Origin: Oscillospiraceae bacterium
GTDB taxonomy: Bacteria; Bacillota; Clostridia; Oscillospirales; CAG-382
Assembly: GCA_015063885.1 (NCBI GenBank)
Contig: SVTH01000009.1
Location: forward strand, 32,110 to 96,109
Length of the DNA stretch: 64,000 bases
Direction: 5' to 3'
Shown here: positions 15,303 through 55,915 of the stretch, in pieces
Numbering within the stretch: the stretch's first letter is position 1
Layout of the letters: each line of letters opens with the position of its first letter
Translations under genes and position numbers: made by a program
The notes under the pieces: generated by a model
Seen by the model: the letters and a program-made list of their open reading frames with translations, nothing else
Told to the model about the DNA's origin: nothing
Database searches by the model: none

Positions 15303-17189
15303 TTATTTTCCCTGCAACTGCTTTTTGTCGTACTGCAATTTATACAGCCCGTAGTATCTTCCCTTCTGCTCCAGGAGCTCCTGATGGGTACCCTTTTCCA
15401 CGATCTTGCCGTGGGAGAGGAAGAAGATCTGATCCGCGTGCTGGATGGTGGAAAGGCGGTGTGCCACGATGAGCATGGTGCCGATGCCCCCCATCTTCTC
15501 CAGAGAGTCCTGGATCAGAACCTCGGTCTCGGTGTCGATGTTGGCGGTGGCCTCGTCCAGGATGATCACCGCAGGGCGGTGGATCAGGGTACGGGCGAAG
15601 GAGAGCAGCTGTCTCTGCCCCGCAGAGAAGTTGTTGCCCCGCTCTCTGACCTCCTCGTCCAGGCCGCCTGGCAGCTTGTCGATGAAGTGGTCGGCGTTGA
15701 CGTAGCGGCAGACTTCGTTCACCTCCTCGTCGGAGATCCCCTCCATTCGTAACAGAATGTTGGAGCGGATGGTGCCGGAGAAGAGGAACACGTCCTGGAG
15801 CATCTGCCCGAAGTGCTTCCGCAGGGAAGCGATCTTGATGCGGGTGATGTCGATGCCGTCCACCAGGATCTGCCCCTTCTGAATGTCGTAGTTACGGCAC
15901 AGCAGGGAGAGGATGGTGGATTTGCCGGAGCCCGTGGAGCCCACGAAGGCGGCGGTCTGTCCCGCCTCGATCTTGAAGGACACGTCCTTTAAGACCCATT
16001 CGTCCTCCACGTACTTGAACCAAACGTTCCTGAACTCGATCTCGCCCTTCACCTCCGTCAGCTCGATGGCGTCGGGAGCGTCCACCACGTCGGGGGTAAT
16101 GTCGAAGATGGTGAAGATCTTCTCCGCCGAGGCGAAGGCGGACTGGAGCCAGTTGAACTGCTCCGCCAGGCTCTGGATGGGGTTGAAGAACTTGGAGATA
16201 TACATATAGAAGGAGACCACCACGCCGCTGTCGATGACCTGCCCCAGGAATTCCGTCTCCTTGATATAGCCTCTGCCGCCCAGATACAAAAGGCAAAGCA
16301 CGGAGGAGATGTACAGCATGTACACCAAAGGACGGAAGATGCCGAAGACGAAGATCTGCTGACGCTTTGCCTTGCCCAAGGCGGCGTTCTTTTCGTCAAA
16401 CTCCTTCTTCTTGCGGGCCTCGCGGTTGAAGATCTGGATGATCTTCATGCCGGAAAGATGCTCGGACAGGAAGGTGTTGATGTCCGTGGTGCCGTCCTTC
16501 ACCTTGCGGTAGGCCTTGCGGGAGAATTTGCGGAACACGATGGTGAACAGCACGATGAAGGGCACGAAGCAAAGCACCATCAGGGTGAGGAGGTAGTTGA
16601 GAAGCAGCATGGCCGCCAGCACCCCCACGATGACGAAGCAGTTCTTCACCAGGTTCACCAGGATGTTGGTGAACATCATGGAGATGGCGCCGGTATCGTT
16701 TGCCACGCGGGTGACCAGCTTGCCCACGGGGATCTCGGAAAGCTGTGCGTGGGAGAGGGATTCGATGTGGATGAACAGATCCTCGCGGATCTTGGAGAGG
16801 ATCTTCTGCCCGATCTTCTGCAGCAGAATGGCCTGGCAATAGGAGCAGATCAGAGAGACCACTAAGATACCCGCGTAAGCTCCCACGGCAATCAGCAGGT
16901 CGGACATGGGGAAATCGTGAACGATCAGCCGCTCGATGTAGCCCACGATCAGAGGAGAAACCACGTCGTAGGCCACGGAAAAGATCATAATGAACAGGAT
17001 CAGCAGGAAGGATCTCCAGTGGGGCTTGGCGTATTTTACCAGGCGCTTTACGATCTCCCCGTCCTGCATATTACGGTCGAAGCCGATGGCTTCCTTTTGA
17101 CCACGGATGGTGAGATAGGCGATGGAAAGCAGAAGCGCCACGAAGCCCACTACGCCGCCCACCAATAAAAGAGGGAAAAACTCAGTCAT
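15303..17189 (-). CDS. ABC exporter half-transporter (TMD-NBD), subunit B of a heterodimer
   Basis: Six N-terminal TM helices. Walker A GSTGSGKST, signature FSAGQRQLLSFAR, Walker B VIILDEATANID. Confidence 0.85.
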   Translation of the reverse strand: MTEFFPLLLVGGVVGFVALLLSIAYLTIRGQKEAIGFDRNMQDGEIVKRLVKYAKPHWRSFLLILFIMIFSVAYDVVSPLIVGYIERLIVHDFPMSDLLIAVGAYAGILVVSLICSYCQAILLQKIGQKILSKIREDLFIHIESLSHAQLSEIPVGKLVTRVANDTGAISMMFTNILVNLVKNCFVIVGVLAAMLLLNYLLTLMVLCFVPFIVLFTIVFRKFSRKAYRKVKDGTTDINTFLSEHLSGMKIIQIFNREARKKKEFDEKNAALGKAKRQQIFVFGIFRPLVYMLYISSVLCLLYLGGRGYIKETEFLGQVIDSGVVVSFYMYISKFFNPIQSLAEQFNWLQSAFASAEKIFTIFDITPDVVDAPDAIELTEVKGEIEFRNVWFKYVEDEWVLKDVSFKIEAGQTAAFVGSTGSGKSTILSLLCRNYDIQKGQILVDGIDITRIKIASLRKHFGQMLQDVFLFSGTIRSNILLRMEGISDEEVNEVCRYVNADHFIDKLPGGLDEEVRERGNNFSAGQRQLLSFARTLIHRPAVIILDEATANIDTETEVLIQDSLEKMGGIGTMLIVAHRLSTIQHADQIFFLSHGKIVEKGTHQELLEQKGRYYGLYKLQYDKKQLQGK

Positions 17190-18969
17190 TGCTCCGATCC
17201 TCCTTCCCCAGGGATTCCAGCTTCTGCAGCTCTACCATGGTACGGTAGGCGGGGCAGGTGTCGTAAAGCTCCTTGTGAGCTCCCACCGCCGCCAGCTTGC
17301 CGTCCTCCAAGAACAGGATCTTATCCATCTGCTCCACGGTGGAGATACGGTGGGCGATGAGGATGGTGGTCTTGCCCTTGCGGAGGGTGCGCAAGTTTTC
17401 CAGGATCTTCTTTTCCGTCTTCACGTCCACCGCGGAAACGGAGTCGTCCAAGATCAGCACGGAGGCGTCCTTCATCAAGGCGCGGGCGATGGAGATACGC
17501 TGCTTCTGCCCGCCGGAGACGGTAACGCCCCGTTCCCCAAGGACGGTGTCGTACCCCAGGGTGAACTCGGAAATGTTGTCGTGAACGTCGGAAAGCTCCG
17601 CCGCCTGCTTGATCAGCGCGGGATCCTCGCTGTCGGAGGCGAAGGCGATGTTTTTGCCGATGGTATCGGAGAACAGGAAGTTATCCTGGGGCACGTAGGC
17701 GCAGAATTTCCGCACCGTTTGGATGGGCAGGGTGTTCACGTCTCTGCCGTCCAAGAACAAGGTGCCGTCGGGGACGTTGTAGGTGCGCAGGATCAGATCC
17801 ACCAAGGTGGTCTTCCCCGCCCCGGTCTTGCCGATGATGCCCACGTTTTCTCCCGCCTTGATGTGGAAGGAAACGTCCTCCAGAACCTTGTAACTGCCGC
17901 CGGGATAGGTGAAGGTGAGATTTTTGCAGGTGATGTCCCCTGCGATGTGCTCCACGTCGGTGACGGTCTCGTTGTCCTTCACGTCAATGGGAGCCTCCAG
18001 CAGCTCGGTGATACGCTCCAAGGAGGCCTTGCCTCTGGATCTCATCTCGATGAGCTGGGAGATGGCCATAATGGGCCAGACGATGGCGGTGAAATAGCCG
18101 ATGAATTCCACCAGCTCGCCGGGGGTCAGAACGTCCGAATACACCAGATAGCCGCCGTAGCCCAAGATCACGCAGATCACCGACTCCACGAAGAGCATCA
18201 CGGAGATGTTCAACAGGGTGGAGGCCTTGGTGTAGCTGATGTTGGCGTCCTCGTTCTCCTTGTTCAGCTTGTGGAAGGCCATCAGCTCCTTGGTCTCCTT
18301 GACGAAGGCCTTCACCACGGCGATGCCGGAGAAGGACTCCTGGGAGAAGTCGGAAAGAGAGGAGAAGGCCGCCTGGCGGGTCTGCCAACGCTTTTGCAGG
18401 CTCTTGCCTACCACGGTGCTTACCGCCAGCAGGGATCCCATGGGAATGAGGGAAAGGAGCATCATGGGCAGGTTCACCCCTGCCATTTTGATCAGCGCCA
18501 AGCCCCCCAAGAACAATGCGTCGCAGAAGGAAAGGATGCCGGAGCCGAAGCAATCCTGCACCGTCTCCAGGTCGTTGGTGAACAGGGACATCAGTCCGCC
18601 CACCTTGTTCACCTGGTAGTATTGCTGGGAAAGGTCCTTACAGTGGTCGAACATCCTGCCCCGCAGGTCTGTTTCCACCTTGATCCCCGAGCCGAAGAAG
18701 CAGATACGCCACAAAAAGCGCCCCACCACCATGATGAGGATCACCACGATCAAGGGCAGGCAGATCTCCTCCAGCAGGAAATCCATATCGAAGGGGCGCA
18801 GAACGCCGTCCACCGGCACCTCGCCCTCGTTGATGCCGTCCACCACCATCTGGTAAAACTCGGGCACCAACAGCTGAAAATAATCCACCGCTATCAACAC
18901 CAGCACGCCCAAAAGAAGCATGGGAGCGTGCTTGAGATAATAGCGGTTGATCTGTTTACCGAATAGCAT
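17182..18969 (-). CDS. ABC exporter half-transporter (TMD-NBD), subunit A of a heterodimer
   Basis: Walker A GKTGAGKTT, signature VSGGQKQRISIARAL, Walker B VLILDDSVSAVD. It overlaps the downstream partner by 8 nt. Confidence 0.85.
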   Translation of the reverse strand: MLFGKQINRYYLKHAPMLLLGVLVLIAVDYFQLLVPEFYQMVVDGINEGEVPVDGVLRPFDMDFLLEEICLPLIVVILIMVVGRFLWRICFFGSGIKVETDLRGRMFDHCKDLSQQYYQVNKVGGLMSLFTNDLETVQDCFGSGILSFCDALFLGGLALIKMAGVNLPMMLLSLIPMGSLLAVSTVVGKSLQKRWQTRQAAFSSLSDFSQESFSGIAVVKAFVKETKELMAFHKLNKENEDANISYTKASTLLNISVMLFVESVICVILGYGGYLVYSDVLTPGELVEFIGYFTAIVWPIMAISQLIEMRSRGKASLERITELLEAPIDVKDNETVTDVEHIAGDITCKNLTFTYPGGSYKVLEDVSFHIKAGENVGIIGKTGAGKTTLVDLILRTYNVPDGTLFLDGRDVNTLPIQTVRKFCAYVPQDNFLFSDTIGKNIAFASDSEDPALIKQAAELSDVHDNISEFTLGYDTVLGERGVTVSGGQKQRISIARALMKDASVLILDDSVSAVDVKTEKKILENLRTLRKGKTTILIAHRISTVEQMDKILFLEDGKLAAVGAHKELYDTCPAYRTMVELQKLESLGKEDRSND

Positions 18970-44043: not shown

Positions 44044-44886
44044 TTACGGTTGAATTTCCACCGTTTCCGCCCAGGCGAAGATCTGCTCCCGATACGCTTC
44101 CGCATCGGTGAAATGGGTGGCGAACTGTAGGATCCACACGCCCTTTTCCGTCACCATGGGAAAGAAGAAGCTGTGGAACTCCGTCCCTGCGATCTTGTTG
44201 GGAGCCTCGAAATAGGTCAGCTCCCCGTGGGATTTGACGTAGACTTCATTTTCAAAGCCATAGCCCTCGATCAATTGGGCGGCCAGATCCTTTACGGGAA
44301 GGTCTTTTCCGTCCGCACCCGCTTCAAAGGGCAGGAATTCCACACAGCAAAGCACCTCGGGAGACACGGCGTAAAGCTCAAAGCCTCTCTCCGACTCCTC
44401 TGTAAAATCCTCCGTCAGAGTGATGGTAAACGCCCCTGCGGTGAAGTCCTTCCCGGTGATCAGCAGGTTGCAGACGATCACCGCCGCCAACGCCAAAAAG
44501 ATGAGAAGCACCCCGCGCTTAGCCAGGAATTGCACCTTCTGCCCCTTCCGCAGAGCGTTCCGCTCCTCCTGGGGGTAAGGCTCCAGCTCCCCGTGGAAAC
44601 GGAAGGCGGGATCCCCGAAGGCGTGGCCGCCCGCAAGGGAAATATCCCCGTCCCCGCTGGGGATCTCGCAGTAGTCGTAGATCTTTTTCTTCCTGGCTAC
44701 GTACACCCGTGCCAGCTTTTCCCCGATGGAAAAGGTCTTGGTCTCTCCGTTGCCGATCTCCCCCAGCCTGCGGCAGGGAGTGGTCCCGAAGGCGGCGTCG
44801 TTGGATTCCCAATCTTCAATATATACCGTGTCTTTTTTGCCCTTTCCCCAAAAGCAAGCCTCTCTGCGTATCGTCAATTCTCTCAT
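44044..44886 (-). CDS. hypothetical bitopic membrane protein
   Basis: 280 aa with a single central TM helix (GVLLIFLALAAVIVCNLLI). I recognise no family motif. Confidence 0.5.
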   Translation of the reverse strand: MRELTIRREACFWGKGKKDTVYIEDWESNDAAFGTTPCRRLGEIGNGETKTFSIGEKLARVYVARKKKIYDYCEIPSGDGDISLAGGHAFGDPAFRFHGELEPYPQEERNALRKGQKVQFLAKRGVLLIFLALAAVIVCNLLITGKDFTAGAFTITLTEDFTEESERGFELYAVSPEVLCCVEFLPFEAGADGKDLPVKDLAAQLIEGYGFENEVYVKSHGELTYFEAPNKIAGTEFHSFFFPMVTEKGVWILQFATHFTDAEAYREQIFAWAETVEIQP

Positions 44887-44958: not shown

Positions 44959-44987
44959 TTTACATTTCCGAAAAGCTGTGCTATACT
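44959..44987 (+). promoter_or_regulatory. sigma-A type promoter of LytTR module 1
   Basis: TTTACA (44959-44964), 17-nt spacer, extended -10 TGCTATACT (hexamer 44982-44987). Confidence 0.55.
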
Positions 44988-45016
44988 ACCTCCGAAAAGA
45001 ACCACGGAGGCAGACC

Positions 45017-45727
45017 ATGACCTATCGCATCGCCCTTTGCGACGACGAGCCCGCACAGAGAGAATATCTGGAGAAAAAGCTTTCCCTGTTTGCCCAGGCG
45101 CGGCGGGTGCAGTTTGACTTCGCCCATTTTTCCTCGGCGGAGGCGTTTTTGTTCTGCTTCCGTGAGAACCGCAACATCGACTTGCTGTTTTTGGATATTG
45201 AGATGGCGGAGATGAACGGCATTGAGCTGGCCAAGGAGCTCCGCAAGGAGCAGGACGCTCTGCAGATCGTCTTCATCACAGGCTACCCCGATTACGTGGG
45301 GCAGGGCTACGACGTGGAGGCCTTACACTACCTCCTCAAGCCCGTGAGCACGGAAAAGCTGTTTGAGGTCTGCGACCGCTTTTTGAAGACGGCGGAGGAA
45401 CAGCCCCGCTTTTACCTGTTCCCCGCAGGGAAGGAAGTGGTGCGCCTTTACGAGAAGGAGATCCTTTACGGAGAATCGGAGGGGCATTACGTGATCTTAC
45501 ACACCAAGACGGAGGAGCTGAAGCTCCGCATGACCGTCCCCGAGCTGGAAAAGCGGCTGGGAGAAGGGTTTTTCCGCCCCTCCCGCTCCTTCGTGGTGAA
45601 CCTGCGGTACGTCACCCGCATCGCAAAAACGGAGATGCTTTTGGAAAACGGCGCGTCCGTCCCCTTGGGAAAGGGACTTTTCGACGAAGCCAATCGGGCG
45701 TTGATCGCCTTTTTAAGGGAGCTTTGA
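45017..45727 (+). CDS. two-component response regulator, receiver plus LytTR DNA-binding domain (module 1)
   Basis: MTYRIALCDDEP...FLDIEMAEMNGIELAKEL is the receiver with its phospho-acceptor Asp. The C-terminal part FFRPSRSFVVNLRYV is the LytTR domain. A GGAGG RBS precedes the start. Confidence 0.85.
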   Translation: MTYRIALCDDEPAQREYLEKKLSLFAQARRVQFDFAHFSSAEAFLFCFRENRNIDLLFLDIEMAEMNGIELAKELRKEQDALQIVFITGYPDYVGQGYDVEALHYLLKPVSTEKLFEVCDRFLKTAEEQPRFYLFPAGKEVVRLYEKEILYGESEGHYVILHTKTEELKLRMTVPELEKRLGEGFFRPSRSFVVNLRYVTRIAKTEMLLENGASVPLGKGLFDEANRALIAFLREL

Positions 45728-45728
45728 T

Positions 45729-46376
45729 ATGAGCAGACGGAGCGAAAAAAAGCTTGCCGCCTTTCAGAACGCCATTATGGAGCAGCATTACGCCGAGGTG
45801 GAGAACATCTACCGCAAGATGCGCACCTGGCGTCACGATTACCACAACCATATCCAGGTGCTGGCGGCCTATCTGGAGCAGGGAGACACGGAAAAGGCAC
45901 GGGAATTTCTGGGTGAGATCCAGGACACCCTCACCAAGGTGGACACGGTGCTGAAAACGGGGAACACCATGATCGACGCCATTTTGAACAGCAAGCTTTC
46001 CCTGATGCACGCAAGGGAGATCCGTGCTGACGCCACCGCAAAGGTGCCCGCCAAGCTGAGCGTGCGGGATATCGACCTGTGCGTCATCATCGGAAATTTG
46101 CTGGACAACGCCATGGAGGCCTGCGAGAAGCTTCCTGCGGGGAGCCGTTTTATCCGTATCTACATCAACGTGAAGGGAACGCATCTGTACATGTCCTTCA
46201 CCAACTCCGCAGGGAAAAAGCAGGAGAAGGTGGGAACGCTGTTCCGCTCCTCCAAGGGCGCCTTGGGCGGACTGGGGCTTTCACGGGTGGACAGCCTGGT
46301 GGCCGATTACGGCGGCTACGTCACCCGTGCTTCCGAGGACGGAGGCTTTACCACCGAGGTCATTTTACCCCTTTGA
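45729..46376 (+). CDS. soluble GHKL-type histidine kinase (AgrC/LytS-type catalytic core without membrane sensor, module 1)
   Basis: H-box RTWRHDYHNHIQVL, N-box IGNLLDNAMEA, G-box GGLGLSRV. No hydrophobic segment occurs in 215 aa. Confidence 0.75.
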   Translation: MSRRSEKKLAAFQNAIMEQHYAEVENIYRKMRTWRHDYHNHIQVLAAYLEQGDTEKAREFLGEIQDTLTKVDTVLKTGNTMIDAILNSKLSLMHAREIRADATAKVPAKLSVRDIDLCVIIGNLLDNAMEACEKLPAGSRFIRIYINVKGTHLYMSFTNSAGKKQEKVGTLFRSSKGALGGLGLSRVDSLVADYGGYVTRASEDGGFTTEVILPL

Positions 46377-46385
46377 ACTGAAATG

Positions 46386-46420
46386 CGCGGGATTTTTGTG
46401 CCAAAAATCCTGCGTTTTTT
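46386..46420 (+). terminator. terminator/attenuator between kinase and ABC genes (module 1)
   Basis: CGCGGGATTTTT-(5 nt)-AAAAATCCTGCG followed by TTTTTT. Confidence 0.65.
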
Positions 46421-46486
46421 GCCAAAACTCCCCGCCATGGGAGAAACTATGCTATGCTGAAGCCACTTCAAAAGGGAGGTGTCTGA

Positions 46487-48334
46487 ATGGCAAAAGACAA
46501 GAAACAAAAAGAACCCCGCCGCAAACCGAAATACGGGATGTGGACCTGTATCAAATGGCTTGCCTCCAAGCTGTGGGAATGGGACCGCGCCGCCGCCATC
46601 TGCTGTATCGCCGCCGTACCCTTGGCGCTGGTGCTCTACGGGCTGGGGCTGTACGTCCCCACCGCCACGCTGAACGTATTGGAAACGGCAGACGGATTCC
46701 CCACGGTGGCACTCACCGTGACCACCCTCCTGGTCACCCAGCTTTTCTTCCGCTTGCTGAAAACGGCGGCGGACGATCTGCGGGGGCTGGCCTACCACGA
46801 CGGTGCCATGCGGTTCTATTACGCCATCACCAAGAAGGGAGCATCCGACGATTTTTATTTGGATCTGGACAAGGAGTATCTCACCCGCAGACGCCGCGCC
46901 TTTGACGTGCTGCGGAACACTGCGGACGGCTCCCCCACCCATTACCTGCTGGACGGGGTCAACGCCCTGGTGAACGTGCTTTGCTTTGTGATGTTCGGCT
47001 CGGTGATCTCCCTGCTGCACCCTGCCATCCTGCTGCTGTTGGTGGCAGGCTCCCTGGTGACCCACTTTTTGCAAAAGCGGCAGCAGAACCGCAACCACGC
47101 CAAGGTGGATGAGCAGACGGCGGTGAACAAGAAGATCATGTATCTGGCATGGAACCTTTCCGCATATTCCGCCCCCGGGAAGGATATCCGCCTTTACGGC
47201 ATGACCCCCTTCTTCGAGTCCCGCGGGAAGAAGCTGATCAAGGAGCATATCCGCTTATTGAAATACCGCCAGAACAACCAATCGGTGGTCACCGTGGGAA
47301 CCCATTTGGTCACCGCCTTGCGGGACGGGGTGGCCTACGCCGTTTTGATCTACGCCGCCGTGGAGGGCAGGGTGACCCCCGGGGAGTTCGTTCTGTATTT
47401 CTCCGCCATCTCCCAGATGTCCGGCTTCATCGGCGGGATCATCGGGTATTTCGGCTCCTTCCACGAAATGAAGCTGAAGACCTCCGACTGTATCGAATAC
47501 TTAGAAGAGGATCACAACCGCCTGCGGAGAGAGGGCGGCATCCCCAAGCCCGAGGGGAGACCTCTTTCCGTGGAGTTCAGGAACGTGACCTTCAAATACC
47601 CCCAAGGGGACAAGAACGTGCTGGAAAACGTAAGCTTCAAGATGGAAGCGGGAGAAAAGATCTCCTTAGTGGGGCTCAACGGCGCAGGCAAAACCACCCT
47701 GACCTGGCTGATGTGCGGCCTGCTCCTCCCCGACGAGGGAGAGGTGCTGATCGACGGGCATTCGGTATACGAATACAACCGTGAGGATCTTTACAGCCTG
47801 TTCTCCCTTCTGCCCCAGCGGTATACCATCCTCCCCACCTCCATTGCGGAAAACGTGGCCATGACGGACAGGAAGGAGATCGACGACGCCCGTCTTTGGA
47901 GCGCCTTGGAGACCGCAGGCATTGGGGACAGGATCCGCCGTCTCCCCCAAGGGGTGGAAACGGGAATGAGCAAGGAGTTCGACGCCCAAGCGGTGAATCT
48001 TTCCGGGGGCGAGATGCAAAAGCTTCTGCTGGCAAGAGCCCTTTACCACCGTGCCCCCATCATGATCTTAGACGAGCCCACGGCGGCTCTGGATCCCATT
48101 GCGGAGCACGAGATGTATCTGAAATACAACGAGATTTCGGAGAATACCACCTCCGTGTTCATCTCCCACCGCTTGGCCTCCGCCCGCTTCTGCGACCGTA
48201 TCTACCTGCTGGACGGGGCAAAATTTGCGGAATGCGGCACCCACGAGGAGCTGATGGCCAAGGGCGGGAAGTACAAGGAGCTGTTTGACATTCAAAGCAA
48301 ATACTACAAGGAGGGTGCAAAAAATGACAACTGA
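46487..48334 (+). CDS. ABC exporter half-transporter (TMD-NBD), module 1 subunit A
   Basis: N-terminal TM domain. Walker A GLNGAGKTT, signature LSGGEMQKLLLARAL, Walker B IMILDEPTAALD. Confidence 0.85.
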   Translation: MAKDKKQKEPRRKPKYGMWTCIKWLASKLWEWDRAAAICCIAAVPLALVLYGLGLYVPTATLNVLETADGFPTVALTVTTLLVTQLFFRLLKTAADDLRGLAYHDGAMRFYYAITKKGASDDFYLDLDKEYLTRRRRAFDVLRNTADGSPTHYLLDGVNALVNVLCFVMFGSVISLLHPAILLLLVAGSLVTHFLQKRQQNRNHAKVDEQTAVNKKIMYLAWNLSAYSAPGKDIRLYGMTPFFESRGKKLIKEHIRLLKYRQNNQSVVTVGTHLVTALRDGVAYAVLIYAAVEGRVTPGEFVLYFSAISQMSGFIGGIIGYFGSFHEMKLKTSDCIEYLEEDHNRLRREGGIPKPEGRPLSVEFRNVTFKYPQGDKNVLENVSFKMEAGEKISLVGLNGAGKTTLTWLMCGLLLPDEGEVLIDGHSVYEYNREDLYSLFSLLPQRYTILPTSIAENVAMTDRKEIDDARLWSALETAGIGDRIRRLPQGVETGMSKEFDAQAVNLSGGEMQKLLLARALYHRAPIMILDEPTAALDPIAEHEMYLKYNEISENTTSVFISHRLASARFCDRIYLLDGAKFAECGTHEELMAKGGKYKELFDIQSKYYKEGAKNDN

Positions 48335-50168
48335 AAAAAGAACCCTCCGTGAGGATCTGAAGCTGATCCTCAGGGGCTACAAGCTGCTTTTTAACATCTG
48401 CCCCGCAGGCATGGTGTGGCGGACGGTGAACTGTATCACCCAGCAGATCTGGCCCTATTTCTCCCTGTATATGTCCGCCCTGATCATCAACGCCATGGCG
48501 GCGGGAGCGGAGCTGAAGGAATTGCTCCTGCTGGCGGCGGTCACCGTTTTCGGGATGCTGTTTTTGAACATTTCCATGCATCTTATCTCCCGCAAGGCGG
48601 AGGAGACGGAAAGCATCCAATGGAATCTCAACGAGCTGTATCTGCTGAAGGTGCAATGTAAAATGCAGTACAAGCATTTCGAGGACCCCAAGACCGCCCT
48701 TCTGCGGCAGACCATCCGCAACCATTCCAACTACGGCGGCCACGGGCTTCCCAAACTGTACTGGACGTATTGGGAACTGCTTTCCTCCGCGATCAATCTG
48801 ATCTTCTCCCTCTCCCTCACGGCCTCCATGTTCCGCATGGTGGACGGTGCGGGACTGACGGGCTTCCCCGCCTTTGCCAATTCCCCCTGGTCGGGGCTGT
48901 TGATCCTGGGCGTGATTCTGGGGAACGTGCTGTTCCAGCTTTGGCGGATCAAGAAATTCGATCTGAAGACCACCGAGGAATGGGGAGATTTCAACACCCG
49001 CTTTGCCCACAGCAACGCCTTTATGCACGGGGAAAAGCCGGACGTAAAGGTCTTCGGCGCGGTGGGATTCACCCTGTCCCGCAGCGAAAAGGTTCTGGCG
49101 GATCGGGGCTATATCCGCAAGCTGTTCAAGATCGGAACTACGGGGAATCTTCTTTTCCATTCCGTGGCGGCGGTGATGAATCTGTGCCTTGCCCTGTACG
49201 TGGGGGCGAAGGCCTTCATCGGCGTCTTCGGTATCGGTGATTTCGTGCTGTATCTGGGCACGGTGGAAAAGTTTGTGGGTGCCGTCTCCGGTCTCGGAAC
49301 TGCGTGGGGGATCCTGCGGATCAACAACGAATACTTGGAGGAGCTGTTCGGCTATATCGACCTTCCCGACGATATGTACAAGGGTACCCTTTCCGTGGAA
49401 AAGCGGGACGACAACCGCTTTGAGATCGAGTTCCGTGACGTGTCCTTCAAATACCCCGGGGCAGAGGAATACGCCTTGCGGCATATCAATTTCAAGTTCC
49501 GTTTGGGAGAACGCCTGGCCTTCGTGGGGATGAACGGCTCGGGAAAGACCACCTTCATCAAGCTTCTCTGCCGTCTCTACGATCCCACGGAGGGGACGAT
49601 CCTCTTAAACGGCATTGACATTTCCCGCTACGATTACGACCAGTATTTGTCCCTGTTCTCCGTGGTGTTCCAGGATTTCCACCTGTTTGCCTTCTCCTTG
49701 GGAGAAAACGTGGCGGCAAGTGAGGATTACGACCCCGCACGGGTGAGGGAGGCCTTGGAAAAAGCAGGCTTCGGCAGCCGTCTTGAGGAGCTGGAAAAGG
49801 GAACGGAGACCTACCTCGGCCGCGGCTACGACGAATCGGGCATAGACGTTTCCGGCGGGGAGGCCCAGAAGATCGCTCTGGCAAGAGCTCTTTACAAGGA
49901 CGCTCCCTTCTTCATCTTAGACGAGCCCACGGCGGCGCTGGATCCCATCGCCGAGGCGGAGGTTTACAACCGCTTCGACACCGTTGCGGGGGACAAAACG
50001 GCGGTGTTTATCTCCCACCGTCTTTCCTCCTGTAAGTTCTGCCACAACATCGCCGTGTTCCATGAGGGCGAGATGATCCAGTACGGCAGTCACGACGACC
50101 TGGTGGCCGACGAAAACGGGCAGTATCACAAGCTCTGGCACGCCCAGGCGCAGTACTATACGGAGTAA
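48324..50168 (+). CDS. ABC exporter half-transporter (TMD-NBD), module 1 subunit B
   Basis: The start MTTEKRTL at 48324 overlaps the upstream gene by 11 nt. Walker A GMNGSGKTT, signature VSGGEAQKIALARAL, Walker B FFILDEPTAALD. Confidence 0.85.
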   Translation: MTTEKRTLREDLKLILRGYKLLFNICPAGMVWRTVNCITQQIWPYFSLYMSALIINAMAAGAELKELLLLAAVTVFGMLFLNISMHLISRKAEETESIQWNLNELYLLKVQCKMQYKHFEDPKTALLRQTIRNHSNYGGHGLPKLYWTYWELLSSAINLIFSLSLTASMFRMVDGAGLTGFPAFANSPWSGLLILGVILGNVLFQLWRIKKFDLKTTEEWGDFNTRFAHSNAFMHGEKPDVKVFGAVGFTLSRSEKVLADRGYIRKLFKIGTTGNLLFHSVAAVMNLCLALYVGAKAFIGVFGIGDFVLYLGTVEKFVGAVSGLGTAWGILRINNEYLEELFGYIDLPDDMYKGTLSVEKRDDNRFEIEFRDVSFKYPGAEEYALRHINFKFRLGERLAFVGMNGSGKTTFIKLLCRLYDPTEGTILLNGIDISRYDYDQYLSLFSVVFQDFHLFAFSLGENVAASEDYDPARVREALEKAGFGSRLEELEKGTETYLGRGYDESGIDVSGGEAQKIALARALYKDAPFFILDEPTAALDPIAEAEVYNRFDTVAGDKTAVFISHRLSSCKFCHNIAVFHEGEMIQYGSHDDLVADENGQYHKLWHAQAQYYTE

Positions 50169-50174
50169 GAACCC

Positions 50175-50207
50175 AAGCCTTCCCATCGGGGAGGGCTTGT
50201 TTTTTTG
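50175..50207 (+). terminator. rho-independent terminator of module 1, overlapping module 2 promoter
   Basis: AGCCTTCCC-(4 nt)-GGGAGGGCT hairpin followed by TGTTTTTTT. The module-2 -10 box TATACT lies at 50220-50225. Confidence 0.7.
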
Positions 50208-50254
50208 AAAAAGGTGTGCTATACTACCTCCGAAAAGAACCACGGAGGCAGACC

Positions 50255-50944
50255 ATGACCTATCGCATCGCCCTTTGCGACGACGAGCCCGCACAGAGAG
50301 AATATCTGACAAACCTGGTCCGCACCTGGGCGGCGGAAGCGGAGGTCTGCGCCGAGATCACGGCCTTTTCCTCCGGGGAAGCCCTGCTCTTCGGGAAGGA
50401 CGGGCAGGATATCTTCCTTTTGGATATCGAAATGCCCGGAATGGACGGCATCGCCCTGGCGGAAGCGCTAAGGAAGACCCGTCCTTACTCCCCCATCGTA
50501 TTCATCACGGGGTACGACCGCTACCTTGCCAAGGGGTACGATGTGGCGGCTTTGCATTACCTGCTCAAGCCCGTGGTGCGGGAGAAGCTGTTTTCCGTGC
50601 TGTCCCGTGCCGTGGAGCAATTGGGGCAAAGCGAAAGAATGCTCACCCTGGAAGCGGGGGGAGAGATTGTCCGCCTTCCTCTGCGGGAGATCGCCTGGGT
50701 GGAGGTGCAGGGCAACTACGTCACCTTCCACGGCAAGGAGACCCATAAAGCCAAAATGACCCTGGCCGAGGCGGAGGCCCGCCTGGACAGCCGTTTCTGC
50801 CGTACGGGGCGCTCCTTCTTAGTGAACCTGCACCACGTGCGGAAGGTAGCCAAAACGGAGGTGTGCCTGGCAAGCGGCGAGAAGGTGCCCCTCTCCCGGG
50901 GGATGTACGAAGCCGTCAACCGCGCCCTGATCAGCAACGTATAA
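50255..50944 (+). CDS. two-component response regulator, receiver plus LytTR domain (module 2)
   Basis: Its first 18 codons and 5' UTR are identical to module 1. The receiver Asp box is FLLDIEMPGMDG and the LytTR box is FCRTGRSFLVNLHHV. Confidence 0.85.
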   Translation: MTYRIALCDDEPAQREYLTNLVRTWAAEAEVCAEITAFSSGEALLFGKDGQDIFLLDIEMPGMDGIALAEALRKTRPYSPIVFITGYDRYLAKGYDVAALHYLLKPVVREKLFSVLSRAVEQLGQSERMLTLEAGGEIVRLPLREIAWVEVQGNYVTFHGKETHKAKMTLAEAEARLDSRFCRTGRSFLVNLHHVRKVAKTEVCLASGEKVPLSRGMYEAVNRALISNV

Positions 50945-50957
50945 AGGAGTGACCGCC

Positions 50958-51614
50958 GTGAGACTGGGAAAGAAAGCCGAAAAACGACTTGCCCTCTACC
51001 AAAGAGAGCTTTTGGACACCCATTACGCCGAGGTGGAGAATATGTACCGCCAGATCCGAGGCTGGCGCCACGACTACCGCAACCATATCCAGACCATGAA
51101 GGCCCACGCCGCAAAAGGGGATCTGCAGGCCATCTCGGAGTACCTGGATCTCCTGGACACCGATCTGAACACCGTGGACACGGTGATCAAGACGGGCAAC
51201 CCCATGACGGACGCCATTCTCAACAGCAAGATCTCTTTGGCAAAAAGCAAGGGCATCCCCGTGAAAGCGGACGCCCACATCCCCGTGGCGCTGAAGATCT
51301 CGGAGCTGGATCTCTGCGTCATCATCGGCAATCTGTTTGACAACGCCATCGAGGCCAGCCTTGCTCTGCCTCCCGAACGGCGGATGATCCGGGTTTACAT
51401 GGACATGAAGGGCACCCAGCTTTACATCTCCTTCACCAACTTCACCGCAGGGAAAAAGCTTTCCAAGGTGGGCAATCTGTTCCGCTCCTCCAAGGGAGAG
51501 GGCCACGGCTTCGGGCTGGTGCGCATCGACGGCATCGTGGAGCGCATGGAGGGCTACATCAGCCGTAACAGCGAGGACGGCGCCTTCACCACCGAGATCC
51601 TGCTCCCCCAATAA
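50958..51614 (+). CDS. soluble GHKL-type histidine kinase (module 2)
   Basis: H-box RGWRHDYRNHIQTM, N-box IGNLFDNAIEA, G-box GHGFGLVRI, and no TM segment. GTG at 50958 (8 nt after AAGGAG) is preferred. The in-frame GTG at 50949 is also possible. Confidence 0.75.
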   Translation: MRLGKKAEKRLALYQRELLDTHYAEVENMYRQIRGWRHDYRNHIQTMKAHAAKGDLQAISEYLDLLDTDLNTVDTVIKTGNPMTDAILNSKISLAKSKGIPVKADAHIPVALKISELDLCVIIGNLFDNAIEASLALPPERRMIRVYMDMKGTQLYISFTNFTAGKKLSKVGNLFRSSKGEGHGFGLVRIDGIVERMEGYISRNSEDGAFTTEILLPQ

Positions 51615-51627
51615 CCGTTCATCCCCC

Positions 51628-51671
51628 GATCCGTGCAATTCGTCCCCGAAATACGCACGGATCTGTTTTTT
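51628..51671 (+). terminator. terminator/attenuator between kinase and ABC genes (module 2)
   Basis: 9-bp stem GATCCGTGC/GCACGGATC with an 18-nt loop, followed by TGTTTTTT. Confidence 0.65.
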
Positions 51672-51691
51672 GTGGTAAGGTAGCTTACGAG

Positions 51692-53530
51692 GTGATAAGA
51701 ATGAAAACAAAAAAGGAAAAGCCAAAATACAACGCTTTTCAAGACTCGATTTACATGGTAAAGCTTGCGTGGAAACACGAAAAGGCAATATTGTTCCACT
51801 TGCTTTTGTTCGTTGCCACGTTTGTCGCGCTCCAGCTGATTGATCTGTACCTTGCGCCGTCGGTCATTTCGGCAGTGGAAAACAAGGTGTCGTTGTCGTC
51901 GCTTGTCCTTACGATAGCGGCGTTCGTCGGCTCGTCGCTGGTGCTGGAAGCAATAAACGCGTATTTCTACGGTTTTCATCAGTATCCGCGCATAACGCTT
52001 CGATTGACGATGTCGGGGATGCGCAACGGGAAGGCTTGCGACACCTCCTATGTCAACCGACTCAAAAAATCGTTTTCTGATATGATGCACAAAGCCAGCT
52101 GGTCCCTTGGCAGCAATAGCTCGGCGGCAGAGGCGATCTGGGGTACGCTCAACGGGCTGTTGCAGCAATTTTTCGGACTCGTATCCATGTATGCCATCCT
52201 TCTGATGATCGATTACCGGCTGATGCTTATCATCATCGTTACAGCGCTTATAAGCTTTGGCGTTGACAAATGGGTGTATGGCTACGAGGACCGTCACCGC
52301 GACGAGTTCTCGTCACTGAACCAAAAACTCGGTCATGTCGGTTGGATCGAAAGAAACCACTATATTGCGAAGGACGTCCGCATTTTCGGACTGGCGGGGT
52401 GGCTCGAAGAGCTTTACTACAAAGCGTTCGCGGCTGTTTTTGCGCTTCGCAGAAGACAAAACCTGGTTTTGTTCCTGTCAGATCTCACAAGCCTCGTACT
52501 GACGTTCCTGCGTAACGGCATAGCGTATGCGTTTTTGATCAATCTGGTTCTTAACGACGGTTTGTCCGCTTCAATGTTCCTTCTGTACTTTAATGCGGTG
52601 GGAAAATCCGCCGCCTGGGCACGGAATATTCTCAGCTCGTTCAACCAGCTCGGTATGCACAGCAGAAACCTTTCGGTATATCGCGAGTACCTCGAATTTG
52701 ACGAGCCGTTTAAATTCGAGGACGGCAAACCGCTTCCCGTGGGGAAAGAACACACCATCACGTTGGAAAACGTGTCGTTCACGTATCCCGAGAGCGAAAA
52801 CGCCGTTTTGAAGGATATCAACCTCACACTTCGCACAGGCGACAAGATTGCCGTCGTCGGCTTGAACGGCGCGGGAAAAACCACACTCATAAAAATAATT
52901 TGCGGATTGCTTGACCCCACAAGCGGACGTGTGCTCATCGACGGAGTTGATGTCCGCGAATACAACAGACGGGATTATTACAAATTTTTCTCTGCGGTAT
53001 TCCAAAATTTCACTATGCTGCCGCAGACCGTTGCCGAAAACGTAGCCCAAAGCCTGGACGGGATCGATATGGCTCGCGTTAAGGATTGCATTGAGAAAGC
53101 AGGGCTGACAAAGAAGATCGAATCTCTGCCCGACGGCTATAACACGTATCTCAACCGCGAGATCTACGAAAACGCAGCGGAGTTTTCCGGCGGCGAGACG
53201 CAAAGGCTGATGCTGGCACGAGCGCTGTATAAGGATGCACCGTTCCTCCTGCTTGACGAGCCCACAGCCGCACTTGACCCGATCGCAGAAAGCGAGGTCT
53301 ATGAAAAATATAATTCTATGACCGAATCAAAAGGCTCCATATTCATTTCGCACCGACTGGCATCCACTCGTTTTTGCGACGTGGTTCTATTGCTGGAAAA
53401 TAACGTCATCCGCGAGCATGGCACTCACGACGAGTTAATGGCGAAAAAAGGCAGATACTACGAGCTGTTCTCGGTGCAAAGCAGATATTATAGCGAAGGG
53501 AGTGTAAACGATGAAGCAGAAGAAAACTAA
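51692..53530 (+). CDS. ABC exporter half-transporter (TMD-NBD), module 2 subunit A, low-GC
   Basis: Walker A GLNGAGKTT, signature FSGGETQRLMLARAL, Walker B FLLLDEPTAALD. It is visibly more AT-rich than the flanks. Confidence 0.85.
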   Translation: MIRMKTKKEKPKYNAFQDSIYMVKLAWKHEKAILFHLLLFVATFVALQLIDLYLAPSVISAVENKVSLSSLVLTIAAFVGSSLVLEAINAYFYGFHQYPRITLRLTMSGMRNGKACDTSYVNRLKKSFSDMMHKASWSLGSNSSAAEAIWGTLNGLLQQFFGLVSMYAILLMIDYRLMLIIIVTALISFGVDKWVYGYEDRHRDEFSSLNQKLGHVGWIERNHYIAKDVRIFGLAGWLEELYYKAFAAVFALRRRQNLVLFLSDLTSLVLTFLRNGIAYAFLINLVLNDGLSASMFLLYFNAVGKSAAWARNILSSFNQLGMHSRNLSVYREYLEFDEPFKFEDGKPLPVGKEHTITLENVSFTYPESENAVLKDINLTLRTGDKIAVVGLNGAGKTTLIKIICGLLDPTSGRVLIDGVDVREYNRRDYYKFFSAVFQNFTMLPQTVAENVAQSLDGIDMARVKDCIEKAGLTKKIESLPDGYNTYLNREIYENAAEFSGGETQRLMLARALYKDAPFLLLDEPTAALDPIAESEVYEKYNSMTESKGSIFISHRLASTRFCDVVLLLENNVIREHGTHDELMAKKGRYYELFSVQSRYYSEGSVNDEAEEN

Positions 53531-55403
53531 AAAGACCAACCGCGTGTCACTGCGCGAGGCAATAAGGCTTAACGTCCGTGTGATCAAGATGGTTTACGGC
53601 GGACGCCGAAAGCTCCTGTTCCTGCAATTGGCAAAAACAGCGTTTGCGGCGCTGACACCGTATATTGGAATATACCTTTCCGCGTTGCTGATTGACGAGC
53701 TGACAACAACTCGTTCACCCGAGACGCTTCGAGCACTCGTTTGGTGGATACTCGGCACTGCGGCTGTGATCGCACTGGTACAATCGGTGCTAAACCGACT
53801 CCATGCGGTAGAATCAACAGCTATGTGGGAGCATGTCCACCACCTTTACGGAAAAAAGATGCTCTCCATGGATTTCGTCAACATCGATAACCCGAATACG
53901 CATACGCTTGTTTCGAGAATCAACCAAAACAGCCAGGGCGGCGGCTGGGGACCCGACAGGATCGTGTGGCAATTAGATAACCTTTGGTCCAGCGTTTTAA
54001 AGCTGTTCGGCGGTAGCGCCCTCGTAGTAACACTTTTCACCAGCAAGGTGGAAAGCGGAAGTGCAGTGGAGTTCCTCAACTCACCGATCACGACTGCGAC
54101 CGTGCTTTTGCTGATGGTAACGATCACGCTTTGCGCCCCGATTTTCGGTGCGATCGGCGGACGATTATATATGCAGTCGTCGGCAGACCACAGACTGGGA
54201 AACAGACTTTTCGGCTATTACGGCTGGTTCGGCACTAACGAGAATTCTTCGGTAGATGCGCGCATATACAACCTCCGCAAAATTTGCGACAACTATAACT
54301 ATGCCAAAACATCCCTTTTCGCATCAAAAGGCTATTTTGCAAAGCTTAACAAAGGAAAGCTCGGGCTCGTGAACGTAATTTCCTCCGTGGTGCAGTCGCT
54401 TTTCAACGTTTTAATATACTTCTACGTGTGCTTAAAGGCGTGGGGCGGGGCGCTGTCGCTTGGCGGAATCACACAGCATATCTCAGCGGTACATATCATT
54501 GCAGGAAGTGTGCGCGGGATCCTCAGCACGCTGACGGATATGCATAACAATGCATTCTTCCTCATTGACGTGTTTGCGTTTTTCGATATGCCTGACAAGA
54601 TGTATCAAGGCACGTTGACCGTGGAAAAGCGGCGGGATCGAGATTACGAGATCGAATTCCGGAACGTTTCGTTCAAATACCCCAATGCCGAGCAGTATGC
54701 CCTCAAAAACGTGTCGTTCAAATTCAAGATAGGTGAAAAGCTCGCCGTGGTCGGTCAAAACGGCTCGGGTAAAACCACGTTTATAAAATTGCTCTGCCGT
54801 CTCTACGATCCAACAGAAGGCGAGATATTGCTCAACGGCATCGATATCAGAAAATATGATTACCGCAACTATATGTCCATCTTCTCGGTGGTGTTCCAAG
54901 ACTTCAGGCTTCTCAACTTTACCGTGGGGAATATAATCGCTTGTGCCTCGGAATATGACCGCGATCGTGTGTTTGCGTGTGCCGAAAGTGTGGGGTTAGG
55001 CGAAAAAATAAGGTCGCTCCCCAATGGACTGGATACGTACATCGATAAGGAATACGACTCCGCGGGCGTTGAGTTTTCAGGCGGCGAGATGCAGAAAATA
55101 GCGTTGGCACGAACGCTGTTCAAGGATTCCGGCTTTATGGTACTGGACGAGCCTACCGCCGCTCTTGACCCGGTGGCGGAGGCGGAGGTGTACCAAAGCT
55201 TCGACAAGATCGTGGGAGACAAGACCGCCATCTACATTTCCCACCGCCTCTCCTCCTGCCGCTTCTGCGACGTGGTGGCGGTGTTCGACGGGGGCGCATT
55301 GGTGCAGATGGGCAGTCACGACGACCTGGTTGCCGACGAAAACGGGCAGTATCACAAGCTCTGGCACGCCCAGGCACAGTATTATGCGGAGGAACAAGGA
55401 TGA
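53511..55403 (+). CDS. ABC exporter half-transporter (TMD-NBD), module 2 subunit B, low-GC except 3' end
   Basis: Walker A GQNGSGKTT, signature FSGGEMQKIALARTL, Walker B FMVLDEPTAALD. It overlaps the upstream gene by 20 nt. The C-terminus GSHDDLVADENGQYHKLWHAQAQYY is identical to module 1 subunit B. Confidence 0.85.
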   Translation: MKQKKTKKTNRVSLREAIRLNVRVIKMVYGGRRKLLFLQLAKTAFAALTPYIGIYLSALLIDELTTTRSPETLRALVWWILGTAAVIALVQSVLNRLHAVESTAMWEHVHHLYGKKMLSMDFVNIDNPNTHTLVSRINQNSQGGGWGPDRIVWQLDNLWSSVLKLFGGSALVVTLFTSKVESGSAVEFLNSPITTATVLLLMVTITLCAPIFGAIGGRLYMQSSADHRLGNRLFGYYGWFGTNENSSVDARIYNLRKICDNYNYAKTSLFASKGYFAKLNKGKLGLVNVISSVVQSLFNVLIYFYVCLKAWGGALSLGGITQHISAVHIIAGSVRGILSTLTDMHNNAFFLIDVFAFFDMPDKMYQGTLTVEKRRDRDYEIEFRNVSFKYPNAEQYALKNVSFKFKIGEKLAVVGQNGSGKTTFIKLLCRLYDPTEGEILLNGIDIRKYDYRNYMSIFSVVFQDFRLLNFTVGNIIACASEYDRDRVFACAESVGLGEKIRSLPNGLDTYIDKEYDSAGVEFSGGEMQKIALARTLFKDSGFMVLDEPTAALDPVAEAEVYQSFDKIVGDKTAIYISHRLSSCRFCDVVAVFDGGALVQMGSHDDLVADENGQYHKLWHAQAQYYAEEQG

Positions 55404-55915
55404 TCTTGGGAATTGCGGGAGGCAGTGCCTCCGGGAAGAGCACGTTAGCGAAAAAGCTTGCAGAGGCAACGGGGGCGGCGGTGCTTTCCATGGACAGCTA
55501 TTACAAGCCCTTTGAGGAGCTTCCGGAAGCCGTGGGCAGGGACGGGAATCTTTACAAGGATTACAACTGCCCCGAGGCCTTCTACACGGAAAAGCTTTTG
55601 GAGGATCTGGCAAAGATCCAAGGAGACGTGATCTTGGAGGGGTTATTCATCCTGGCGTTGCCCTGCCTGCGGGAACGATGTGACGTGAAGATCTTTCTGG
55701 ATTGCCCCGCCGATATCCGCATCCTCCGCCGGGTGAAGCGGAATCTGGGGTGGGGGCTGTCCTTGGAGGAGATCTCCCAAGTCTACCTCGCATTGGTGCG
55801 CTACCGCCACGAGGAGTACGTTGCTCCCTCCGCGGTGTACGCAGACGAGGTGTGGGACACCTCGGACGGGGCGGAGGCATGCTTTGACCGGCTGTCGGGG
55901 TTGTTCGAGGGGTAA
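55400..55915 (+). CDS. uridine kinase-family P-loop kinase
   Basis: MILGIAGGSASGKSTLAKKL is the P-loop, as in Udk/PRK-family kinases. The protein is 171 aa. Its start overlaps the ABC stop in an ATGA. Confidence 0.6.
   Translation: MILGIAGGSASGKSTLAKKLAEATGAAVLSMDSYYKPFEELPEAVGRDGNLYKDYNCPEAFYTEKLLEDLAKIQGDVILEGLFILALPCLRERCDVKIFLDCPADIRILRRVKRNLGWGLSLEEISQVYLALVRYRHEEYVAPSAVYADEVWDTSDGAEACFDRLSGLFEG

Follow-up and report, generated by a model that had tools for sequence, protein, structure and literature searches.

Control of a kinase by a neighbouring transporter is known from the BceAB-BceS systems, in which flux sensing operates and the activity of the ATP-binding cassette (ABC) transporter governs the kinase (PMC4513084, PMC10314905). 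A LytTR-type system that adjoins ABC genes, AtcS-AtcR, has been described in Treponema denticola; AtcS is without a recognisable sensing domain, and Bce-like sensing has been suggested for it (PMC12070737). The present analysis concerns a four-gene cassette, coding for a LytTR response regulator (RR), a histidine kinase (HK) and two ABC half-transporters (A and B), which stands twice in tandem in a stretch of 64,000 nucleotides from an Oscillospiraceae bacterium (assembly GCA_015063885.1, contig SVTH01000009.1, positions 32,110 to 96,109 of the forward strand), hereafter called the window. This cassette is a new variant of HPK10/LytTR two-component systems and of transporter-linked resistance modules, and it poses the question of how a two-component kinase without an input domain gets its signal in a setting of four genes and one promoter.

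The original prediction, made from the sequence alone, described two tandem modules with the identical order RR-HK-A-B, and this arrangement was borne out by the list of open reading frames (ORFs) and by Pfam and NCBIfam scans. The half-transporters consist of a transmembrane domain (TMD) and a nucleotide-binding domain (NBD), and the kinases of the dimerization and phosphotransfer (DHp) and catalytic, ATP-binding (CA) domains. The genes are the following:

45017-45727, + strand: RR1, receiver plus LytTR response regulator, 236 aa (Response_reg 6e-18, LytTR 4e-16)
45729-46376, + strand: HK1, soluble AgrC-type (HPK10) kinase core, DHp and CA only, 215 aa (SPOB_a, HATPase_c_5)
46487-48334, + strand: A1, TMD-NBD ABC half-transporter, 615 aa (profile scans, motifs)
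48324-50168, + strand: B1, TMD-NBD ABC half-transporter, 614 aa from the ATG; the ORF opens with TTG at 48285
50255-50944, + strand: RR2, receiver plus LytTR response regulator, 229 aa (Pfam scan)
50949-51614, + strand: HK2, soluble AgrC-type kinase core, 221 aa (SPOB_a, HATPase_c_5)
51701-53530, + strand: A2, TMD-NBD ABC half-transporter, 609 aa from the ATG; alternative GTG at 51692
53511-55403, + strand: B2, TMD-NBD ABC half-transporter, 630 aa

By sequence and predicted fold, each kinase amounts to one complete AgrC-type DHp plus CA module, in which the H, N and G boxes are intact, without any additional part. Pfam recognised SPOB_a (DHp) and HATPase_c_5 (6e-18 and 4e-18), and the H-box RHDY(H/R)NH, the N-box GNL(L/F)DNA and the GxGL motif are all present, with H36, N123, N127, G181 and G183 invariant among 63 relatives. 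The sole sequence match in PDB was the Staphylococcus aureus AgrC kinase module 6E52 (E 2.6e-8), in which RHDYVN of AgrC is aligned with RHDYHN of the query. An AlphaFold2 (AF2) model, computed from a 63-sequence alignment with a predicted local distance difference test score (pLDDT) of 76, gave HK1 a long helix (residues 3-50) that carries His36, a helix at 54-70 and an alpha/beta CA domain, with no extra domain, and its best fold matches were again AgrC (6E95/6E52, E ~6e-12). The claim that these kinases carry no hydrophobic segment was confirmed, since no window of 19 residues exceeds 1.6 on the Kyte-Doolittle scale, the maxima of the two proteins being 1.06 and 1.51. A missed membrane-spanning N-terminus, the objection raised beforehand, is excluded because in-frame stops lie 5 and 7 codons upstream of the two kinase starts and the regulator gene ends 1-4 nt before the kinase gene. 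Of the traits that define HPK10/AgrC-type systems, the catalytic core and the LytTR regulator alongside were found, and the polytopic sensor domain of 5-7 transmembrane (TM) helices was not. The regulators RR1 and RR2 keep the acidic pair (DD), the phospho-accepting Asp (within LDIEM in RR1), the T and the K, with a C-terminal LytTR domain, and the phosphotransfer chemistry of kinase and regulator looks intact, as judged from these residues. The TM-less kinases of the HK2 type (in the loci L008-L078 of the sample introduced below) share a short N-terminal motif, M-G-[LF]-[FL]-S-[KR]-[KR]-[IL]-[DE], which may be a remnant of a membrane-proximal segment or a docking motif.

The cassette is very common in gut Clostridia and apparently unstudied. 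A word-indexed search returned 4,644 short homologues, of which the top 120 are all 214-251 aa long and are named at most 'GHKL domain-containing protein', and a scan of one genome per species showed that at least 596 species genomes encode a relative of the kinase. From these matches 80 loci were kept, mostly from Lachnospiraceae, Oscillospiraceae and unclassified Clostridia of gut and rumen, with Roseburia inulinivorans DSM 16841, Faecalibacterium gallinarum JCM 17207 and one Treponema metagenome-assembled genome (MAG) among the carriers. The regulator gene lies directly upstream of the kinase gene in 76 of 79 loci, and A and B follow downstream on the same strand in 63 of the 67 loci whose flank measures 4.2 kb or more, so that the four-gene order, whose occurrence beyond this genome the original prediction had singled out for examination, is indeed widespread. 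A conserved accessory gene was also considered and rejected, as no non-cassette family occurred in more than 6 of the 80 loci. Full-text literature searches found no experimental paper on the cassette; a paper on RR_1586 of Clostridioides difficile, considered as a prior study, concerns an OmpR-type regulator.

Relatives of the kinase that retain membrane helices were found within the same cassette. An exhaustive search of 1.84 billion representatives yielded 23,463 kinase relatives, short and long together, and among the closest are proteins of 326-449 aa with 44-49% identity, in which the core is C-terminal and about six hydrophobic helices are N-terminal. One such polytopic kinase, P0127, sits in a regulator-kinase-ABC-ABC cassette (locus L081), and another, P0142 (locus L082), is preceded by a regulator gene and followed by an A-like gene, with the 21-bp boxes described below also present. 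Additionally, the kinases of 11 of the 80 loci, likewise part of this cassette, have a single N-terminal TM helix and hardly any external residues. In a tree built from 170 kinase cores, the polytopic forms branch at the base and the single-TM forms constitute a grade, and HK1 and HK2 each fall into a subclade of their own within one TM-less clade (support 94). Other TM-less lineages arise elsewhere on the tree, with at least 13 state changes overall, some of them possibly truncated gene calls. On this tree the TM-less state is derived, and the cassette, as read from its extant forms, survives the stepwise loss of the membrane domain of its kinase, from about six helices to one and to none. 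It is therefore argued that this domain is not the point of signal entry, at least in the derived forms. The premise that LytTR-partner kinases are normally polytopic thus stands in part: the window kinases are indeed without TM helices, but other copies of the same cassette have polytopic or single-TM kinases, which do not mark a separate system.

Further evidence comes from the gap between the kinase gene and the exporter genes, which holds the following elements:

46385-46420, + strand: hairpin with a 14-bp stem, plus T-run, after HK1 (46385-46415: -20.7 kcal/mol, z -5.1); its 3' arm is box 1
46393-46431, + strand: candidate RR1 boxes TTTTTGTGCCAAAAATCC and GTTTTTTGCCAAAACTCC, starting at 46393 and 46414, 21 bp start to start
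46450-46458, + strand: putative extended -10 TGCTATGCT of the A1-B1 promoter, TGnTAnnnT at the same position in relatives
51615-51648, + strand: candidate RR2 boxes CCGTTCATCCCCC and CAATTCGTCCCCG, starting at 51615 and 51636, 21 bp apart
51628-51671, + strand: hairpin GAUCCGUGC...GCACGGAUC enclosing box 2, then T-run (51628-51663: -17.9 kcal/mol, z -2.8)
51673-51681, + strand: putative extended -10 TGGTAAGGT of the A2-B2 promoter (sequence and alignment of relatives)

Candidate paired LytTR repeats, for which a search of this region had been proposed, were found at 46399-46431 and 51617-51648, 21 bp apart and conserved across dozens of species. The module 1 repeats match in 10 of 11 positions at spacing 21, and in 15 of 18 over the full 18-nt unit (counted by eye), and the RR2 boxes fit the family consensus CAATTC[G/A]TC[C/A]CC, which recurs in the same way in about 40 species. 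Neither pair occurs a second time in the window, and each stands only before its own ABC pair (for the module 1 pair, 0 occurrences are expected), and the boxes of the two modules differ from each other. When 63 kinase-ABC gaps were compared, with shuffled sequences as the expectation, the spacing of the best direct repeat was precisely 21 bp in 40.8 gaps versus 2.5 in shuffles, and TTYRTS occurred twice at exactly 21 bp in 44 of 63, followed by a conserved TGnTAnnnT. A hairpin of at least -8 kcal/mol strength directly before a T-run was present in 52 of 63 gaps versus 6.2 in shuffles (shuffle maximum 12), so that the terminator-like hairpin noticed in the window proved to be a conserved feature, and box 2 is often one arm of its stem. 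In the clade of the HK2 type, the 5' part of the gap reads CAATTC[G/A]TC[C/A]CC, 10 nt and C[G/A]ATTCGTCCCC, and the 3' part comprises about 22-27 nt ending in a T-run, TGnTAnnnT and a ribosome-binding site (RBS). In the modules, a T-rich stretch occupies the place expected for a -35 element and is followed by the extended -10 and the two ABC genes. No gap gave an Rfam match at E up to 1. Target sites of AgrA/ComE-type LytTR regulators consist of paired direct repeats 21 bp apart, and the geometry of the gaps matches these sites, from which binding by the cassette regulator is inferred. The suggested regulator-dependent induction of the exporters fits the conserved 21-bp repeats and the hairpin between kinase and ABC genes, and is well supported by this sequence pattern; it is most likely that the phosphorylated regulator switches on the ABC pair.

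The output of the cassette is predicted to be a heterodimeric type IV (ABCB-like) exporter, as two adjacent genes each code for a 6-TM TMD fused to a C-terminal NBD. All four ABC proteins matched ABC_tran and carry a canonical Walker A, signature, Walker B-Glu and H-loop together with three pairs of hydrophobic peaks, and A and B gave matches to ABCB1, ABCB4 and MsbA. Pfam ABC_membrane (PF00664) matched only A1, at 19.4 bits and thus below the cut-off of 28, and the NCBIfam MsbA alignments extend into the TMD. The A2-B2 block of the window has a lower GC content, about 50%. Among 41 complete cassettes of the HK2 type, mean pairwise identity was 76% for the kinase, 69% for the B NBD, 65% for the A NBD, 60% for the regulator, 42% for the A TMD and 39% for the B TMD, and the identities of the A and B TMDs vary in concert (r 0.92). 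Such values are consistent with substrate sites that vary and a signalling interface that is conserved.

The regulator genes have a different kind of control region, and parts of it belong to tracts in which the two modules are nearly identical. The elements at the module ends are these:

44959-44987, + strand: promoter-like site of the RR1-HK1 operon, TTTACA, 17 nt, TATACT, with TG one base before the -10; 10 of 12 matches
44989-45010, + strand: 5' untranslated region (UTR) hairpin CCUCCG/CGGAGG, pairing the RR1 Shine-Dalgarno (SD) sequence (-9.2 kcal/mol, z -2.45)
50220-50225, + strand: RR2 -10 TATACT, inside tract T1b
44971-45070, + strand: tract T1a, 99/100 identical to 50209-50308; covers -10, 5' UTR, RBS and RR codons 1-18
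50209-50308, + strand: tract T1b; covers -10, 5' UTR, RBS and RR2 codons 1-18
50085-50165, + strand: tract T2a, 95% (77/81) identical to 55311-55391, mismatches counted by eye; last 27 codons of B1 and B2
50174-50206, + strand: putative intrinsic terminator after B1, 11-bp stem plus T7 (50174-50199: -22.6 kcal/mol, z -4.3)

RR2 is preceded by the identical SD-pairing hairpin sequence (50227-50248), and this shared 5' UTR hairpin may throttle translation of the regulators. The 21-bp boxes were absent upstream of the regulator genes in all 79 regions compared (0/79), many of which show a good extended -10 instead, and autoregulation through boxes of the exporter type is thereby rejected. Identity reaches 1.0 in T1 versus 0.4-0.8 in adjoining comparison windows, the modules being otherwise about 35-80% identical, and the unitigs mentioned below break at 50085. 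T1 and T2 are probably gene-conversion or recombination tracts, judging by this local identity, and they may be handles for the exchange of exporter blocks taken up below.

The two modules are, by the measure of their proteins, old paralogues, because identity between them is 35-52% (RR 49%, HK 52%, A 35% and B 40%). A recent duplication was rejected on the same values together with the placement of HK1 and HK2 in separate, widespread subclades. Likewise, misassembly at the 100-nt repeat does not account for the tandem layout, because unitigs from two public metagenome runs (X1 and X2) cross the junction of B1, terminator and RR2 at 50120-50308 without mismatch (spans in X1/X2: 50120/50132 to 50244/50308) and because both modules are likewise tandem in the close relative L009. 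A non-coding spacer of 650 nt (L009:7409-8058) separates the B1 terminator from RR2 in that relative, versus 87 nt in the window. Two cassettes or an extra exporter pair also stand in tandem, as in the window, in L008, L048 and L073; therefore, local multiplication of modules is, on the evidence of these loci, recurrent.

The surroundings of the modules contributed several further observations. A 171-aa uridine-kinase-like (udk-like) P-loop gene at 55400-55915 has a start that overlaps the B2 stop (ATGA); a udk-like junction after the B gene recurs in L072 (48% identity) and in no other of the 80 loci, and is therefore regarded as local synteny and not as a part of the cassette. A further ABC exporter-like gene pair, with an NBD about 30% identical to those of A and B, lies on the - strand of the window at 15333-18270, and the tblastn scan turned up no LytTR regulator or kinase adjoining it. 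The cassette of the Treponema sp. MAG (L028, 5678-10932), with a single-TM kinase in a spirochaete MAG, is due to horizontal transfer from the Firmicutes or else to faulty binning. A tblastn search of PLSDB at 1e-20 gave no match that would indicate plasmid carriage, and as to anti-phage defence PADLOC returned only generic ABC-ATPase similarity.

These features can be combined into the model of a self-contained inducible export unit whose kinase takes its input from the exporter, a tentative model to which we give slightly less than even credence. A sigma-A-type promoter without regulator boxes would drive transcription of the regulator and kinase genes, and this transcript would end at the hairpin and T-run directly after the kinase gene, so that the hairpin would bar constitutive transcription from the exporter genes. 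The phosphorylated LytTR regulator, sitting as a dimer on the two boxes, would then activate the exporter promoter, which would be activator-dependent, its -35 region being replaced by the T-run and the boxes. The differing boxes would insulate the two modules from each other, the only evident targets of each regulator being its own ABC pair. The resulting heterodimeric type IV ABC exporter would remove a toxic compound or peptide, with substrate identity set by the fast-evolving membrane domains. In the least certain step, the exporter itself would signal to the kinase at the cytoplasmic side, through the conserved NBDs or the coupling region, and the kinase would read transporter activity, which amounts to need-based induction, a Bce-like logic built from unrelated parts. 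An exporter-derived signal appears most likely because the kinase lacks an input domain and has no conserved genomic partner but the ABC pair, and because its membrane part was lost without break-up of the cassette. Sensing through the transporter is the best remaining idea for the signal input, and also the least certain. A more specific form, in which the soluble kinase reads the ATPase or conformational cycle of the exporter through its NBDs, so that an invariant signalling unit of kinase, regulator and boxes could serve freely exchangeable exporters for any substrate, is possible and is put forward with somewhat lower confidence.

Several observations weigh against an exporter-derived input. 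Kinase identity correlates with that of the regulator (r 0.84), less with those of the TMDs (0.55-0.62), and hardly with that of the B NBD (0.12). The close relative L009 has an HK2 that is 92% identical, with identical boxes, hairpin and -10 and with an RR2 of 62% identity, yet its A2 is only 55% identical, the sequences parting from the A2 RBS onward (L009:9440-9680 versus window 51590-51720). Because kinase and boxes are conserved in L009 while A2 differs, exporter pairs are, as these alignments read, replaced as blocks while the signalling unit in front of them is conserved. It is consequently unlikely that the kinase fits a particular TMD as in Bce systems, and any coupling would have to run through the conserved NBD side and not through a specific TMD contact, since the kinase does not co-diversify with the TMDs and the ABC genes were swapped in L009. 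Furthermore, the polytopic ancestors might have sensed ligands directly, like AgrC, and the TM-less forms could then have turned into unregulated phosphodonors. Lastly, the public runs that hold the window sequence are DNA metagenomes only, with no RNA run among them, so that promoter, terminator and induction are inferred from sequence.

We consider it unlikely that the kinase is such an unregulated phosphodonor, constitutive after the loss of its sensor, with the exporters kept at a set level or following growth state and with control exerted at the shared promoter or 5' UTR hairpin, by regulator dephosphorylation or by acetyl-phosphate levels. This explanation would account for a kinase without an input domain that does not co-vary with the transporter, and the 100-nt promoter and 5' UTR tract, 99% identical between modules that otherwise share 50-75%, together with the SD-pairing hairpin, hints at control in that region. 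However, an always-on system has no obvious gain over a constitutive promoter, hundreds of species strictly retain the boxes as well as all catalytic and phospho-acceptor residues, and the kinase is the most constrained part of the cassette (76%), which would not be expected of a mere phosphodonor. This high conservation would suit a universal ligand, as would be the case if a small molecule in the cytoplasm, such as an intracellular pump substrate, a redox cue or a nucleotide (for example ADP, or a second messenger), shifted the kinase/phosphatase balance without a partner protein by binding to the DHp helices, to the ATP lid or to the long helix at the N-terminus. In favour of this, the phospho-His is preceded by about 33 conserved helical residues, and the surface of the kinase hardly varies. 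Nucleotide second messengers are known to bind the CA domain of some kinases, c-di-GMP on CckA being an example, and this offers a precedent. Nevertheless, no ligand-binding domain can be recognised, DHp and CA use up the 215 aa, a universal cue leaves the constant presence of a highly variable exporter output unexplained, and sensing of diverse substrates conflicts with 76% identity in the kinase versus about 40% in the TMDs; direct cytoplasmic sensing is therefore judged improbable.

A membrane protein, unlinked or local, might instead be the true sensor, and a candidate is the 280-aa bitopic protein encoded at 44044-44886, divergent from module 1, whose gene adjoins that module both here and in L009. 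Accessory membrane proteins control several kinases, for example LiaF with LiaS and SaeP/Q with SaeS. This explanation is nonetheless very unlikely, given that within the 80 loci the bitopic protein recurs only in that one closely related genome and that no gene beyond the four is conserved alongside (at most 6 of 80 loci). Peptide quorum sensing of the Agr/Com/Blp type, or export of a bacteriocin through the ABC pair, is brought to mind by the class of the kinase and regulator (AgrC/AgrA-ComD/ComE) and by the scores of the ABC proteins with bacteriocin-exporter models, which are below cut-off. The modules hold no peptide precursor gene, no AgrB and no C39 peptidase domain, they have no conserved neighbour, and the kinase lacks an extracellular or membrane receptor part. 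The agr P2 promoter carries autoregulatory boxes, and none stand before the regulator genes of the cassette. Such a peptide system is hardly credible here.

If the exporter is indeed the sensor, the sensing of transporter activity would reach beyond the Bce family and include ordinary ABCB-type exporters, and this would explain how gut anaerobes could confine the induction of drug, bile-acid or bacteriocin efflux to times of need. If the kinase reads the NBDs, two-component systems would have a new way of taking in a signal, and efflux would have a plug-and-play 'activity sensor'. The locus itself is a natural experiment, with old paralogues side by side that differ in their boxes, a recent exchange of tracts and a swapped exporter block.

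Compared with known systems, the cassette resembles AgrC-AgrA of S. aureus, ComD-ComE and BlpH-BlpR in its HPK10 core with RHDYxN and HATPase_c_5 and in its REC plus LytTR regulator, and its target promoter, as in AgrA and ComE, has two direct repeats 21 bp apart. Unlike AgrC-AgrA, the window modules are without a polytopic sensor, without peptide precursor or processing genes and without autoregulatory boxes, and their output is an ABC exporter pair. Also related are the polytopic and single-TM kinases of the cassette itself (for example P0127 in L081 and those of L049, L056, L060 and L028), which share the gene order and 44-56% identity in the core and keep about six or one N-terminal TM helices, where the window kinases have none; the 21-bp box arrangement is shared too, for example in the cassettes of L082, L056 and L069. 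NatK, of the NatK-NatR system of Bacillus subtilis, is a membrane-bound kinase. NatK-NatR with NatAB is similar as a LytTR-type system beside the ABC genes that it regulates, but the NatAB ATPase and permease are separate, and the likeness is one of description only. Transport status is reported by the NBD face of an ABC transporter to a signalling protein without a ligand sensor of its own in PhoR-PhoU-PstSCAB and MalK-MalT of Escherichia coli. Unlike in the window modules, however, the transporters of the Pho and Mal systems are importers, PhoR is membrane-anchored, has a PAS domain and needs PhoU, and MalT is no kinase; there is no sequence relation.

AtcS, likened to the window kinases by description only, differs from them in being membrane-bound (PMC12070737). 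A parallel in logic is BceRS-BceAB of B. subtilis, where likewise a kinase without a sensing domain lies beside an ABC transporter under the control of its regulator and several diverged paralogous modules occur per genome (PMC4513084, PMC10314905). In both cases the activity of the transporter would be the signal, which has been demonstrated for Bce and is proposed here. The parts are nevertheless unrelated. BceS, a HisKA kinase with two TM helices, makes contact with BceB inside the membrane, BceR is OmpR-type, and the Bce transporter combines a separate NBD with a 10-TM permease of the FtsX type that has a large extracellular domain. The cassette, whose SPOB_a/HATPase_c_5 kinase is without TM helices and whose regulator is of the LytTR type, has fused TMD-NBD half-transporters of the ABCB/MsbA kind and hence falls outside the Bce type. 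Since its kinase, unlike BceS, is soluble, any contact with the exporter would be cytoplasmic.

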